A stretch of 63,550 bases of DNA, the filler included, from Neolecta irregularis DAH-3 (taxonomy: Eukaryota), in assembly GCA_001929475.1 (NCBI GenBank). It is 5 parts of 5 records of this genome, joined end to end, with 100 filler letters (N's around TTAATTAATTAA, not from the genome) between each part and the next. Parts side by side here need not be neighbours in the genome. Positions count along the whole stretch, not along the records: positions 1 to 19,695 come from LXFE01000420.1; positions 19,796 to 41,338 come from LXFE01000422.1; positions 41,439 to 43,157 come from LXFE01003642.1; positions 43,258 to 61,467 come from LXFE01000426.1; 1 more part is not named here. One strand, written 5' to 3'. The position numbers were made by a program, and so were the translations under genes. Each line of letters starts with the position of its first letter. Position 1 is the first letter of the stretch. This document shows positions 2,893 to 58,416 of the stretch, piece by piece. Below the pieces are notes generated by a model. That model was not told the DNA's origin. It worked only from the letters and a program-made list of their open reading frames with translations, and did no database searches.

Positions 2893-4720
2893 ATGACTCC
2901 TCCTCGCTACTCAGTTCACGCTGAGCCTTTGTCTATTAAGGATAGCGCTTTTAAGCTCTCGGAATCTACGCTCAAAGACTACGATTGCTTGGTTCTCATT
3001 TATACGAATGCAGAAACTCTGCAACAATTTTCTATCGATGCTGTATCTCAGCTTTCCAAAATAAACCTCTCGTTTTCTTCTGAATGTTCCCTTATTCATT
3101 CAAATATTGCGCCAGGGAACCGCCTCGTTCTCTCCCCTACAGCAGGACTCTCTGGCGACACAGACGACGTGAGACTTTTCGGCGAAGCTGCAGGCGCTGC
3201 AACAAGGAAAGCCATTGCATCTGGAGCGAACAAGATACTAATTCATATCGTTGATCCACCTACTTTGCAGATCGCAAATGGCGCTTATAGAAATTTTGCA
3301 CAAGTTGCTCTTTTGGGGTGTCTCGATGTTGTCAACAGTCGAAGAAACGCGAATACCAAAGTTGGAATAATGTTCAAAGACCAGAAGAAAGGAGAGGAAA
3401 TAATCAAAGTTGTCGTCGCCATCGAGGAAGGAAGGATCCTAGCTCGAAAAATCGGAACGTATGGCAGATTTTGCACTTTGAAACTGGACTGATTGTATCA
3501 GAGGCTGTCCCGAAGAAATGGCCCCTCCAAAATTTGCAGAGGCTATCATGGAAGCATTCAAGAATGAGAAGGCCATAAAAAGCGAATTGATCCAAGATTA
3601 TGATATTATGCTCAAGGAGTACCCGCTCCTTGCAGCTGTCGGCCGTTCTGCTTCCAAAGTTCATCGGCATAACTCGCGAATTGTCAAGCTGGAATACAAA
3701 TCGCCAGATCAATCTAAAGTCAAAGAAAAGTGTTCACCGTCTTTAATTGCAACATAGCTCACATAACAGTCTTTCATTTATTGGAAAAGGAATAACTCTT
3801 GACACCGGTGGTCTTGATATCAAAGCTGGAGGAGGCATGCGAGGAATGTCAAGAGATTGTCTTGGTGCCGGAAGCGTAGCTGCTCTGATGCTTACTATTG
3901 CAAAACTTCAGCCAGAGCATATCAATGTCAGTGCTAAACTTGCTATCGTTCGGAACAATACCGGAAGTGAAGCGTATTCATGCGATGAAGTAATCACTTC
4001 GCGGGCAGGAAAACGGGTTCTTGTCGGAAATACAGATGCTGAAGGTCGAATGGTAATGACTGATTTGCTTTGTGAGGCCAAGGAGGAAGCACTTGAAAGC
4101 ATGAAAAAGCACAGTGTTCCCCATCGAGTATTGATCTTGTTCATTCTATCACTTGCTCACGCGTTAGCTTTTCACTGTTGCAACTTTGACTGGGCATGCT
4201 TGTATTGCTGTAAGGTTCCTTTGACTCTGATGTCTAATCTCAAGTTTGGACCCTACTCAACCTCGTTATCCAATGGTCCAGCTTCTGCAGATATGATATC
4301 TCATCGTCTCGCTAAAGCAGGACATGTTTGGGGTGATCCATTTGAAATATCTACCCTCCGACGTGAAGACTTTTCCATGGTTCGACCTGGAAATCCGGAA
4401 TCAGAGGATGTCGTTCAAGCCAACACCCTCCCTACTGTACGAACTGCGTATTTATTATTGCGTTGAATGTCTTTGATTGGATTAGCCGAGGTCATCAATA
4501 CCCGGCTGCCTTTATGATAATAGCAAGCGGTCTAGAAAACCATCAAGGTAAGATTGGTTATACCCATTGTGATATTGCTGGTGCTGCAGAGGATGAGCCT
4601 ATCAAATTGAGTCTTGGTCGAGTCAACGCAAGACCTGTTCCTGCGTTAGTGGTATTTCCTGTTGGTTTTCTGAAACTCATATTATAGGGCGCTTTTGTAA
4701 TCCCGGAAGGCTGTCAATAG
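2893..4720 (+). CDS. M17 leucyl aminopeptidase family protein, 7 exons
   Basis: Metal-binding motifs GKGITLDTGGLDIK, MSRD, NTDAEGR, then LFTVATLTGHA, RGHQYPAAF, YTHCDIAG; six short introns. Confidence 0.92.
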
Positions 4721-4914
4721 TGATGCATATTCTTACATCTCACTAGTTTAGAAAATAGAAAATCATGTAGAGAAATTTATAAGTAGAACAGGAATCGTTT
4801 GGGCATCTCCTAGGAAATAACAGCAGACCAATACAGAGTCGACTAACAATTTGATACAGTGAACAGTTTCTGCAAATGCATAGAGAGATACACCATACAA
4901 TGGTTATAACCGAA

Positions 4915-6032
4915 TTAACGACGGAACTTAGCTTCTGTAGCTATTCGTTCTTGGACTTCAGGAAAAACCAGGTCTCCAACATCTTCAAGTTCCATTGAAG
5001 CTTCATATGCAGAGATTATCATCGTTTCAGTAATTGGGATCTGCATCTTTGCCAGTGCCTTGATACAGTTCGCTATACGAGCGATGTTGCTTCTGGTAAT
5101 CTCCGGGATATCCTAATTAATAGTCAGCAACCAAAGCAGCAAAAGGACCACTCACTTCGTTAACATTTGAATAGATAGCCTCGGAGGCCTCCTCTTCTAA
5201 TCTAGTGACGCTGATACCTGTTCCAGTTGGCAAGGCTAGATGTTTCATAACATAGACATAACCGTTGACTCCAAGGATAACGTCAACTCCACCGGGCATG
5301 TTGTAGATATGACTCTTTGAACGGACAATATATATAGGCGGAACTTGGAGGAAATAGCCATTCCTAAGTTTACCGTATTTGAGTGACCGAGTATGTATCG
5401 ACACAGAACCGTCATGAAAGTAAGCTTGTACTTCGGCCTAGACTCATCAACATGCAACTGACGAACGGCCATACCACCAAAAGATCTCCTTCTGCAAAGA
5501 AATTCCTCATTTGAAGCTCGTCACTTTCGGATTTCCGTCTCAGAATGCCGCCAGGTAGATTGATTGCAGAAAGTTGCAAAATTGCATCTTGTCGAGCTCC
5601 AACATCGACTTTCCAGCGTTTCTGCGATACTTCTGATATTCGACCGACGACTAAATCCCCAATCTCTGGGGTGTATCTCGTTGTCAGAAAATCAAAGAGG
5701 AAGGTGTTGGAAAACCTTGATTTAACAGGTTTTACGGTAATGAGCTTATTCGTCCGAGTTATGGTCCCCACTACACTTGCAAATGCTTTATCAATCCCTG
5801 TATATGTTCCATGCCCTCTTTCATGGTCAGTGAGTTGATATATTAGATGTAGCTACTTCATAAACTGTGGATCGTCTGTGATTAATTCTCCAGGAGTCAC
5901 GATCTTGTTGAACCTCGACATGGAATCGGGCATCTCTGTATCTCCTTCAGTATCGAGAAGATCCTGGATATCATCCTCGGGCAGATCCTCTGGTAGTATA
6001 TATGGCTGTGGAGCGAGAATAGTGATAGTCAT
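4915..6032 (-). CDS. RRP4: Exosome complex subunit Rrp4, 5 exons
   Basis: [65 protein letters not shown]. Confidence 0.96.
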
Positions 6033-56666: not shown

Positions 56667-56797
56667 GGAGTGTCATAGGGAAATGGGTGTACTACCACTT
56701 GCGTGCTGTATTGGCGTTCTTGTATCTGTATCGTATCGTATCTTATGGTGTTGTAACTTGGTGCTGCGACTGCCACTTGCCTTGTTCACTCACCACC

Positions 56798-58416
56798 ATG
56801 GTTCATTTGACCCAGGCCAAAGGTTTACATACCCCCATGCCCGTTGTTGCTCAACCACAAGGAATCACCAGTGCATCTACCAGCAGCAGCAGAGAAAACA
56901 GAGTTGCCGCCCATTCCCACATTCGCGGCCTGCAAACCGGCTTTATCGGTCAGGATGATGCTCGAGAGGCACGTTTTTTTTCTCCCGCTCATGCTCATCC
57001 GCTCCAGGCCTGCAGCATCGTCGTCGATATCATAAAATCAAAGAAAATGGCCGGAAGAGCCCTTCTTTTTGCAGGCGGCCCAGGGACTGGAAAGACCGCC
57101 CTTGCCCTTGCTATCGCGCAGGAGCTTGGTCCAAAAGTCCCATTCTGCCCCATCGTAGGAAGTGAAGTCTACTCTGCAGAGATAAAAAAGACAGAGGTTC
57201 TGATGGAGAATTTTCGCAGAGCAATCGGTATCCCTTTCTCATTTCAAACCTGATCACAGGCCTGCGGGTCAAGGAAACGAAAGAAGTCTACGAAGGCGAA
57301 GTTGTCAATATGCAAGTCGAGGGTTTGATGTTTGCGCGAGGCTTTTACTTATCTGCTTAGAAGCTGACAGTCCTCTGGGCGGCTATGGAAAGACAATCGC
57401 TCATGTTATAATCGACCTGAAAACTTTTAAAGGAACAAAACAGCTCAAACTGGACCCAAGCATCTACGAGAGTATCCAGAAAGAGAAGGTGACAGTGGGC
57501 GATGTGATATACTTGGAAGCAAACACTGGTGCAGTCAAGGTTTGCTATCATCTGTCGAATCCATCTGATCCTCAGAGAGTCGGCCGGTCGGATGCCTATG
57601 CAACCGAGTTCGACCTGGAAGCCGAAGAATACGTGCCTCTACCCAAAGGTGAGGTCCACAAAAAGAAGGAAATTATACAAGATGTTACACTACATGATCT
57701 GGATACAGCAAATGCTCGGCCTCAGGTATATATACTCTGTAATTTCGACTGAGCTTTGTTAGGGTGGGCAAGATATCATGTCCATGATGAGTCAGCTTAT
57801 GAAAAACAAAAAAACCGAAATAACAGATAAGCTGCGACAAGAGATCAACAAGGTTGTGAATAAATATATCGACCAAGGCGTCGCAGAGCTCATTCCTGGC
57901 GTCCTCTTCATTGATGAGGTCCATATGCTTGATCTCGAATGCTTTACATATCTCAACAGGGCCTTGGAATTGACGATCTCGCCAATAGTCATCTTTGCTA
58001 CAAATAGAGGGTTATGCACCGTTAGGTTTGACAATCTAGTTATGGGGCAAAATTAACATAAAAGAGGTACCGACGACATCGTTGCGCCCCATGGAATTCC
58101 CTTAGATTTACTTGATCGATTACTCATCGTTCGGACGTTACCGTATACCGAAGAAGAAATTAAGACAATCATTCAGCTTCGTGCAAAAACCGAAGGGTTA
58201 TTAATCACAGATGCTGCTCTTAATCGTCTAGCCTCACAAGGCAACCAGGCGAGTTTACGATATGCCTTGCAGTTACTGACACCTGCGAGCATTCTGGGGC
58301 GTATTCAAGGACGTAACGAGATTGATATTCAAGACATCGGAGAATCTAACGCTCTTTTCTTGGATGCAAAACGTAGTGGAAGACTTGTACAAGAGAGCAG
58401 TGAGTTTATTATCTAG
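56798..58416 (+). CDS. RVB1: RuvB-like AAA+ helicase 1, 8 exons
   Basis: [58 protein letters not shown] intron 56969-57007. Confidence 0.97.

Follow-up and report, generated by a model that had tools for sequence, protein, structure and literature searches.

In the window, that is, the whole stretch of 63,550 nt of Neolecta irregularis DAH-3 DNA analysed here, genes are interrupted by introns of about 36 nt. These introns are genuine and are excised from transcripts. They appear to be ordinary U2-type (GT/GC-AG) introns near the lower size limit, which are found mostly by branch site, acceptor and spacing, a reading to which we assign a probability of roughly 60%. All counts of intron anatomy were taken from a curated set of 50 introns in 16 genes. 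The origin of the DNA is supported by two NCBI proteins of this strain, P0121 and P0391, which align to the window at 100% identity. Thirteen introns are backed by spliced contigs of run X2, their joints being missing in the unspliced run X1, six by a near-identical intronless protein, 12 by alignments to homologues or PDB entries, 12 solely by mapped annotated proteins, and seven solely by Pfam coordinate arithmetic. Absence from transcript-type sequence was thereby seen for the 13 X2 introns and the six introns of RVB1 (protein P0003), and the other 31 are defined by homology, annotation or Pfam only.

Among the 15 joints listed, 13 are skips of 33 to 43 nt that run from GT/GC to AG in the orientation of the gene and occur in X2 only, and the same 13 loci are collinear in X1 contigs. 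Depth of X2 varied from 17.8 to 711.7 across genes; that of X1 was flat at about 430. Joints and depth suggest that X2, which is not on record as RNA, is spliced RNA-derived sequence. At the X2 joints, the canonical cut is the sole GT/GC..AG placement among the equivalent cuts. On the plus strand, these introns are located upstream of a FIG1-like gene (25170-25207, 38 nt, GTATGC), at 25511-25548 (38 nt, GTAGAG), in the FIG1-like gene itself (25612-25644, 33 nt, GTACTT; 25888-25923, 36 nt, GTACTG; 26303-26338, 36 nt, GCAAGT, with GC..AG as the sole canonical cut), and in an HPC2-like gene (28405-28441, 37 nt, GTATTT). On the minus strand, they were found in the TBCC gene (28991-29024, 34 nt, GTATAG; 29133-29165, 33 nt, GC-AG with GCACCT, placed also by the Pfam TBCC 58/59 junction; 29607-29642, 36 nt, GTACGC, in frame and open; 29798-29840, 43 nt, GTCCGC) and in a Tim17/NDUFA11-like gene (30187-30225, 39 nt, GTTCGC; 30346-30378, 33 nt, GTGGTT). 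The last joint, in UBP2 on the plus strand (31432-31465, 34 nt, GTATAG), is the one place where X2 overlaps with a homology or annotation model, and the two agree (1/1). Mapping of P0391 defined this intron as well as those at 31547-31589 (43 nt, GTATAC), 32342-32375 (34 nt, GTAAGA), 32545-32581 (37 nt, GTATGT), 32611-32646 (36 nt, GTATGT), 32783-32818 (36 nt, GTAAGA), 33092-33130 (39 nt, GTTTGT), 33564-33600 (37 nt, GTGAGC), 34037-34069 (33 nt, GTATCT), 34209-34244 (36 nt, GTCTGA, an exact mapping), and 34347-34382 (36 nt, GTAATT). With these 11 introns removed, the UBP2 frame of 1,201 aa closes.

For RVB1 (plus strand), alignment to P0003, an intronless protein of 457 aa, shows six gaps, each of them a GT/GC..AG segment of 32 to 39 nt: 56969-57007 (39 nt, GCACGT, in frame and open, a 13-residue gap whose frame fits GC..AG only), 57228-57259 (32 nt, GTATCC), 57323-57360 (38 nt, GTTTGA), 57540-57575 (36 nt, GTTTGC, in frame and open, a 12-residue gap), 57726-57762 (37 nt, GTATAT), and 58026-58064 (39 nt, GTTTGA). 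Such regularity, in these gaps as in the X2 joints, does not arise by chance. Homologue gaps also back introns in BDF1, RPB3, RRP4, and ATE1. In BDF1 (plus strand), alignments with Pneumocystis P0006 and P0010 located introns at 55694-55732 (39 nt, GTAAGT) and 56308-56343 (36 nt, GTATGA, branch CTGAC). The shortest intron, in RPB3 (44731-44760, plus strand, 30 nt, GTACTC, branch CTGAC, acceptor AAG, in frame and open), matches exactly a 10-residue gap against the solved Rpb3 chains of S. pombe and S. cerevisiae (3h0g_C, 7o4i_C). In RRP4 (minus strand), tblastn with homologues and sequence inspection gave 5113-5155 (43 nt, GTGAGT, branch CTGAC) and 5438-5474 (37 nt, GTATGG, branch TTGAT), a 13-residue gap in three of three homologues gave 5677-5715 (39 nt, GTTTTC, branch CTGAC, in frame and open), and Pfam ECR1_N continuity together with homologues gave 5818-5856 (39 nt, GTAGCT, branch CTGAC). 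ATE1 (minus strand) contains introns at 47015-47048 (34 nt, GTCGAG; homologues P0122, P0125, and P0136, with which the NCBI model disagrees) and 47759-47794 (36 nt, GTTCGA, branch CTGAC, in frame and open; a 12-residue gap in three of three homologues), three defined by P0121 mapping and homologues (47237-47271, 35 nt, GTATGT; 47394-47425, 32 nt, GTAGTG; 47830-47863, 34 nt, GTATAT), and one by P0121 mapping (47541-47575, 35 nt, GTGGGT), which also placed an intron in a GTPase gene (48680-48714, minus strand, 35 nt, GTAATC, branch CTAAC).

Pfam coordinates located introns in COX11 (46278-46311, plus strand, 34 nt, GTACCA; CtaG_Cox11 continuity), in a GH18 chitinase gene on the minus strand (39929-39968, 40 nt, GTAAGA, GH18 continuity at 110/111; with sequence inspection, 40198-40234, 37 nt, GTTTTT, and 40371-40407, 37 nt, GTATCA), and in SGF29 on the plus strand (8618-8652, 35 nt, GTAAAT, by SGF29_Tudor arithmetic and frame enumeration; 8801-8838, 38 nt, GTTGCT, branch CTAAC). 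A further SGF29 intron at 8535-8572 (38 nt, GTTTAT), derived from frame enumeration and Pfam, is only probable, because a cut at 8524-8564 (GTTAAA) also closes the frame. The sequence-only reading of this DNA had named the RPB3 intron and a series of unusual donors. The RPB3 intron and the donors given for RRP4 (GTTTTC, GTAGCT), TBCC (GTCCGC), the NDUFA11-like gene (GTTCGC), UBP2 (GTCTGA), chitinase (GTTTTT), and ATE1 (GTTCGA, GTCGAG) were all recovered; for SGF29, GTTGCT was upheld and GTTTAT is the ambiguous case just described.

Errors of modelling, indels in the assembly, or genuine short insertions in the proteins could also produce gaps of this kind. Our own gene finder gave false introns, for instance at 45159-45183 and 29133-29210, that are contradicted by Pfam, the NCBI model of ATE1 contains errors, and, judged from sequence alone, the nine introns with an open frame could be coding. 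Such an origin is nevertheless very improbable, since X2 contigs are spliced where X1 contigs are collinear, RVB1 has its near-identical intronless counterpart, gaps are precise against solved structures, and 11 introns close the UBP2 frame; it is already contradicted for the 13, six, and 12 introns with transcript-like or homology support.

Donor sites of the 50 introns are very weak. Over positions -3 to +6 they contain 5.19 bits of information, only 1.60 of which lie outside GT. GT is present in 47 donors and GC in three (6%), and AG is the acceptor in all 50, which are the ends of U2-type introns. The suggestion that many donors lack G at +5 proved correct (24/50 have it); +3 is a purine in 37 and a pyrimidine in 13. 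The X2-backed subset is alike (+5G in 5/13; 1.61 bits outside GT). What remains is a preference for G|GTA.G, so that the donor comes down to about G|GT(A>T). Agreement with CAG|GTAAGT extends to 5.0 of nine positions in true donors, compared to 3.6 of nine in 302 exonic decoy GTs. The description of these donors as near-informationless is therefore apt as to their weakness, but they are not free of information. The residual consensus is what canonical U1/U6 would leave behind. Compensation between -1G and +5G was absent in the 50 introns (odds ratio 0.88, p = 1), and the acceptor is hAG with a flank devoid of signal. Two special classes were considered and rejected. U12-type introns are characterized by an [AG]TATCCTT donor and a TCCTTAAC branch 10-15 nt from the acceptor, according to PMC3033335; a single donor of the 50 (57228-57259) starts with GTATCC, with CCTGATC in its branch region, and the remaining donors bear no relation to that consensus. 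The ultra-short class of ciliates, nucleomorphs, and myxozoans has typical introns below about 30 nt; with a minimum of 30 and a median of 36, the introns described here, although they function in a similar way, lie just above it.

Donors of this composition are odd for a fungus, and could signal a change in the spliceosome itself. Alterations in the U1 5' end or the U6 ACAGAGA box, or alteration or loss of U1-C, Luc7, the U6 m6A methyltransferase, SNRNP27K or Prp8 contacts might permit or cause degenerate donors, with a true molecular ruler extending from the branch site. Besides the composition at +3 and +5 and the three GC donors, a standard deviation of just 2.5 nt in the donor-branch distance would fit, as would the link between METTL16/SNRNP27K and 5' splice-site preference in other fungi reported in PMC10581693. 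For fungal donors, PMC3033335 gives a very strong G at conventional +5, the position called +4 by Iwata & Gotoh, in contrast to 24/50 here. We regard this possibility as unlikely: the canonical residual consensus argues for an unchanged U1/U6 register, and introns piled against a steric minimum would give an equally narrow distance. No snRNA gene was detected in the window (no Rfam family at gathering score).

Intron length is 36.4 +/- 2.8 nt (median 36, range 30-43, n=50), which bears out the modelled size of almost always 30-50 nt. Branch points are motif predictions throughout. A yTnAy motif (>=3 bits, 5-13 nt from the acceptor) is present in 48 introns, at a distance of 28.3 +/- 2.5 nt from donor to branch A (range 22-34) and 8.1 +/- 1.6 nt from branch A to acceptor (range 5-12). 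No correlation exists between these distances (r = -0.09), and nothing points to a ruler acting on total length beyond two independent constraints. Since 19 of the 48 introns contain another GT inside the observed distance range, the donor cannot be picked by spacing alone.

To estimate the contribution of each feature, four fully resolved transcripts with 27 introns and 3,863 GT/GC..AG candidates were scanned on a leave-one-gene-out basis, using matrices trained on the 50 introns. Per true intron, GT contributes 3.81 bits, the donor flank 1.16, AG 3.78, the acceptor flank 0.02, the branch 2.47, length 2.74, and composition 1.80. Ablations were scored by the number of true introns outranking all overlapping candidates and by false loci in exons. 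All features together gave 25/27 and 11 false loci. Removing the donor flank changed this to 23/27 and 16, removing the branch to 22/27 and 32, and removing length to 18/27 and 19; splice-site matrices alone achieved 7/27 with 33. Loss of length or branch is thus far more harmful than loss of the donor flank. Short introns whose recognition is aided by length and cross-intron signals are expected under intron definition, and length alone accounts for 2.74 bits and for the drop from 25 to 18. It is plausible that spacing and branch site are the main determinant. The earlier proposal that spacing mainly places the donor is partly supported: the narrow donor-branch distance and the small effect of removing the donor flank agree with it, the 19 introns with rival GTs do not. 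With the full model, the 11 exon false loci occur at 90% recall in 7.7 kb, among them a 35-nt decoy in conserved RVB1 coding sequence (58197-58231); their persistence indicates that some determinant is missing.

High-scoring decoys in exons would also be expected if no special mode existed, deletion bias and drift having shortened introns and eroded donors, with error-prone splicing tolerated or cleaned up later and narrow lengths as a floor effect. The value of r = -0.09 agrees with this, total length having no constraint of its own, and extreme shortening is linked with reduced splice motifs in myxozoans and a dicyemid (PMC13644364). We consider it doubtful, however, because X2 joints coincide with homology or annotation sites at the one locus where both exist (UBP2), and because introns with lengths divisible by three are not depleted (22/50), nine (18%) being also free of in-frame stops. 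Retained introns of the latter kind would evade nonsense surveillance in the essential genes RVB1, RPB3, and RRP4, so that accuracy must stem from recognition.

In the preferred reading, ordinary U2-type introns would have been shortened to about 36 nt, not far above a lower size limit, and each may be recognized as one unit across itself. Most specificity would come from the acceptor, the branch site and a donor-branch spacing that is short and narrow; pairing of the donor with U1/U6 would add only a little, and GT would be needed chiefly for chemistry. This would require no altered spliceosome component, although donor proofreading is likely relaxed. A bolder version, which we put forward very tentatively, is that branch-anchored 5' splice-site choice evolved in Neolecta: the GU located some 28 nt 5' of the branch A would be taken as donor, U1/U6 pairing beyond GU being largely dispensable, and the in-frame open introns might serve regulated retention inserting 10-13 residues. 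If true, near-minimal introns would be seen in an intron-rich fungus for the first time, and the long-standing problem of tiny-intron recognition could be dissected in Neolecta, an S. pombe relative.

S. pombe, of the same subphylum, and other ascomycetes share GT-AG ends, a yTrAy branch near the 3' splice site, and the lack of a polypyrimidine tract, and recognition across the intron has been demonstrated experimentally in yeasts (PMC2397502). From the supplement of PMC8476143, annotated Neolecta introns average 41.5 nt (806,929 nt / 19,467, our division), in agreement on size with the curated 36.4; the corresponding means are 88.5 nt for S. pombe and, for two species of Pneumocystis, 48.5 and 50.7 nt. 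Pneumocystis, the nearest intron-rich relatives, also belong to the Taphrinomycotina, have short introns and share the BDF1-RVB1 gene neighbourhood with the window, but their introns are on average about 12-14 nt longer. Plant 5' splice sites are similarly poor at +5/+6 (0.27/0.21 bits in PMC10599564, 0.14/0.09 here); plant introns are much longer and composition-reliant, and the -1G:+5G compensation described in plants is the one absent here. Ciliates (Paramecium, about 25 nt; Stentor) have narrow lengths near the minimum as well, but below 30 nt and in an unrelated lineage. In Paramecium, stop-free introns with lengths divisible by three are depleted, unlike in Neolecta. Myxozoans and Dicyema are parasitic animals with median lengths of 22-27 nt, and Neolecta is a free-living, fruiting-body-forming ascomycete with a well kept branch motif.

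Ultra-short introns with reduced splice motifs are already described for myxozoans and a dicyemid in PMC13644364; no account of tiny weak-donor introns in Neolecta or in any other fungus turned up in our literature search. For Paramecium, the way in which very short, poorly marked introns are located by the spliceosome is stated to be an open question (PMC8997360), and tiny-intron recognition in ciliates is called poorly understood in PMC8997360 and PMC9505925. The same syndrome is now seen in an ascomycete of the S. pombe subphylum, with 36 nt, about 1.6 bits outside GT, 6% GC-AG, +3 pyrimidines in a quarter, and the branch motif well kept. These introns are ready-made natural substrates for tests in a relative amenable to genetics, and the pattern tells what to seek in Neolecta snRNAs and U1 proteins. 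Standard gene finders and public annotation mis-model such genes, so that systematic errors are present in the proteomes on which comparative studies of Neolecta and its relatives draw: the NCBI model of ATE1 is fused with its neighbour, retains one intron and misplaces another, and two Pneumocystis models fuse BDF1 with RVB1.

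The window consists of fungal nuclear DNA, dense in genes and with a GC content of 41-53%. When 146 open frames with a minimum length of 95 aa were scanned against Pfam, STE2, Fig1, WSC, RRP4, TIP49, Rpb3, ATE, UCH, GH18, TBCC and others were recovered, and many domains were divided between neighbouring frames. Two NCBI proteins of Neolecta irregularis DAH-3, a fused GTPase-ATE1 (P0121) and UBP2 (P0391), map onto the window with 100% identity. At the level of proteins, the DNA is therefore that of N. irregularis or of a source that cannot be told apart from it. Neither Rfam families at the gathering score nor tRNAs were detected in the window.

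Since the gene finder was unreliable, public models were erroneous and many introns are open in frame, no single source was trusted to define introns. Five kinds of evidence were pooled: contigs of a run containing spliced contigs (X2), an intronless protein, gaps relative to homologues, mapping of annotated proteins, and Pfam continuity. The curated set comprises 50 introns in 16 genes. X2 contigs were compared with those of a run collinear with the window (X1) over 23000-40700, and 15 of 51 joints were listed. Thirteen of the listed joints are skips of 33-43 nt present in X2 only and bounded by GT..AG or GC..AG on the gene strand, while the remaining two are common to both runs and repeat-related. 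The listed joints include UBP2 31432-31465; the other UBP2 joints and those of GPP34 and the chitinase lie outside the list. Depth ranged from 17.8 to 711.7 across genes in X2 and was steady near 430 in X1. We infer that X2 is RNA-derived, although it has no RNA label on record.

A near-identical intronless protein of 457 aa (P0003, encoded by a contig of 1,521 nt) aligned to RVB1 in four blocks, and its six interruptions proved to be exactly GT/GC..AG segments of 39, 32, 38, 36, 37 and 39 nt. Gaps relative to three homologues each defined four introns in RRP4 and five in ATE1, two Pneumocystis proteins defined two in BDF1, and the RPB3 intron 44731-44760 corresponds to an exact 10-residue gap relative to the solved Rpb3 chains of S. 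pombe and S. cerevisiae. Exact protein mapping yielded 11 introns in UBP2, closing a frame of 1,201 aa, as well as one intron each in ATE1 and the GTPase gene. Introns of SGF29, COX11 and the chitinase gene are supported by Pfam profile continuity. Models from our own Viterbi gene finder served as candidates only; they split or fused genes, and their introns of 24-29 nt and of more than 60 nt were contradicted by Pfam coordinates. In SGF29, a first tudor intron placed by Pfam at 8524-8564 (GTTAAA) was superseded by 8535-8572 (GTTTAT), whose branch-type motif, TTGAG, is spaced as usual; the choice between the two is ambiguous. Of two further candidates, neither of which was counted, 8253-8295 was rated likelier than the 25-nt GTTTAT segment 8271-8295. 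The short introns with weak donors described in the sequence-only reading are confirmed as a robust observation, and the ten unusual donors named there are all within the curated set, with GTTTAT of SGF29 being the ambiguous one.

Intron length is 36.4 +/- 2.8 nt with a range of 30-43 (n=50). Donor information over positions -3 to +6 amounts to 5.19 bits after small-sample correction, of which 1.60 bits lie outside +1/+2 (n=50), distributed mainly over -1 (0.49) and +3 (0.56), with 0.12, 0.14 and 0.09 bits at +4, +5 and +6. A purine at +3 is present in 37/50 donors and G at -1 in 32/50. That many donors are devoid of G at +5 had been noted before and is borne out by the count of just 24/50. 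The evidence subsets agree on donor weakness: outside GT, 1.61 bits were obtained for introns supported by X2 (+5G 5/13), 2.06 for those from homology (10/18) and 1.08 for those from annotation (8/13). The acceptor is hAG, and its flank carries no information (n=47). A yTnAy motif was found in 48/50 introns when searched 5-13 nt from the acceptor, most often as CTGAC (9), CTGAT (6) or TTGAT (4), other variants being rarer. This search replaced one without position constraint, which misplaced some sites. From the donor to the predicted branch A the distance is 28.3 +/- 2.5 nt (range 22-34); from that A to the acceptor it is 8.1 +/- 1.6 nt (range 5-12), a spread narrowed by construction of the search. 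No correlation exists between these two spacings (r = -0.09).

The length of 22/50 introns is a multiple of three, and nine of these also lack an in-frame stop (5677-5715, 25612-25644, 26303-26338, 29607-29642, 30187-30225, 44731-44760, 47759-47794, 56969-57007 and 57540-57575). If retained, these nine would add 10-13 residues and would not trigger nonsense surveillance. GC-AG introns account for 3/50 (6%; 26303-26338, 29133-29165 and 56969-57007), and two of their donors (GCACCT, GCACGT) are far from the usual GCAAGT form. The 32-nt RVB1 intron 57228-57259 begins with GTATCCCTT and resembles a U12-type donor, but its branch region mismatches the U12 consensus, so that the likeness is probably coincidence.

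The contribution of each signal was assessed in RVB1, ATE1, RRP4 and UBP2 transcripts with all introns resolved (7,733 nt, 27 introns), in which all GT/GC..AG pairs of 20-100 nt (3,863 candidates) were scored with matrices trained on other genes. Per true intron, GT contributed on average 3.81 bits, the donor flank 1.16, AG 3.78, the acceptor flank 0.02, the branch site together with its position 2.47, intron length 2.74 and composition 1.80. With all features, 25/27 true introns beat every overlapping candidate, and 11 false loci appeared in exons at 90% recall. These values changed to 23/27 and 16 without the donor flank, 18/27 and 19 without length, 22/27 and 32 without the branch site, and 7/27 and 33 with splice-site matrices only. 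Informationally, branch site and spacing therefore outweigh donor sequence. To this extent the data agree with the earlier proposal that donors are set mainly by spacing from the branch point and acceptor; a residual donor consensus, competing GTs, exon decoys and two further ideas that failed restrict it.

The residue in donors is G|GTA.G, and matches to CAG|GTAAGT average 5.0/9 in true donors versus 3.6 in 302 exonic GTs; as judged from sequence, this consensus points to an ordinary U1/U6 register. A competing GT occurs inside the observed distance range in 19/48 introns. In conserved RVB1 coding sequence, a 35-nt decoy at 58197-58231 (GT...CTTAAT...CTAG) scores 15.9 bits, equal to real introns, and must stay unspliced in the main product. 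Given such strong exon decoys, a simple recognition model is incomplete. Spacing and branch site are a plausible basis of recognition in Neolecta; the modified spliceosome that the sequence-only reading took to be implied is a conjecture. If the donor is taken as the closest GT that precedes the branch A by no less than 24-26 nt, the true one is picked in 38/48 introns, a result that repeats the narrow distance distribution in another form. Specific avoidance of GT near donors, apparent at first (23 observed, 35.8 expected), was dropped, since a control revealed general depletion of GT in exons (ratios 0.71-0.73; 6 versus 14.6 in the near-donor exon stretch). Compensating donor classes with -1G or +5G were not supported by any association between the two (odds ratio 0.88, p = 1). 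A metagenome scan with an RVB1 exon gave 80 loci with at best 87% identity, none from a close Neolecta relative.

From the N. irregularis annotation (19,467 introns, 806,929 nt; Lim et al. 2021 supplement, PMC8476143), a mean of 41.5 nt is obtained by our own division, versus 48.5 nt for Pneumocystis carinii, 50.7 for P. jirovecii and 88.5 for S. pombe; the text of the same paper gives 63 nt for Cryptococcus. In Iwata & Gotoh (PMC3033335), the shortest mean among 61 species is 56 nt. The small size of Neolecta introns was therefore already latent in public data. In the paper on the Neolecta genome (PMC5309816), neither "intron" nor "splic" occurs anywhere in the main text, Cisse et al. 2021 dealt with intron numbers only, and literature searches for Neolecta splice signals revealed no description. 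Plants, according to Beckel et al. (PMC10599564), have 0.27 and 0.21 bits at +5 and +6, compared to 0.14 and 0.09 in Neolecta. In retained introns, 5' information is lower by 1.9 bits or 24% according to McGuire et al. (PMC2397502), which by our arithmetic implies about 8 bits at constitutive sites across the species they studied, over donor positions that may differ from ours. Ultra-short introns of myxozoans and a dicyemid are also reported to have reduced splice-site logos (PMC13644364), and recognition of the 25-nt introns of Paramecium is termed poorly understood in PMC8997360. In view of the reduced signals in ultra-short introns of other lineages, the tiny introns with weak donors in Neolecta are a new fungal instance of a known syndrome and not a system of a new kind.

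Several annotation errors were encountered. P0121 (46945-49798, minus strand) fuses the GTPase to ATE1 by skipping 325 nt whose ends are not canonical (47966-48290) and retains the 36-nt in-frame ATE1 intron 47759-47794 as coding. Its 48-nt intron 47015-47062 deletes a conserved YYYMG stretch and leaves the end in the wrong frame; ATE1 homologues favour 47015-47048. BDF1 adjoins RVB1 (54217-58416, plus strand), and a single fused protein is annotated in Pneumocystis oryctolagi and P. canis (P0006 and P0010, the proteins aligned to BDF1), which shows conserved synteny and an annotation error of the same kind.

Ten N runs (372 bases; 19696-21356, 41339-43257 and 61468-61567) lie beside G+C-rich low-complexity DNA at 20-23 kb and 40.8-44 kb, which contains repeats rich in proline and serine as well as an 18-nt tandem repeat (41273-41338). 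At 26546-27727 and around 40611, X1 depth, otherwise about 430, rises to 798-1170. Numerous contigs from both runs terminate within 27009-27088 with unrelated loose ends, and a joint connecting 27030 with 40611 is common to the two. This region looks like a dispersed repeat. Two mating-related genes are present in the window, one for an STE2-type pheromone receptor (146-1290, minus strand) and a FIG1-like gene at 25.6-26.4 kb. To our knowledge, Neolecta is known from fruiting bodies only. The X2 contig over the FIG1-like gene (24773-26545) has a depth of 711.7 versus about 200-230 for the genes next to it, which would mean strong representation of the FIG1-like gene, provided that X2 derives from RNA.
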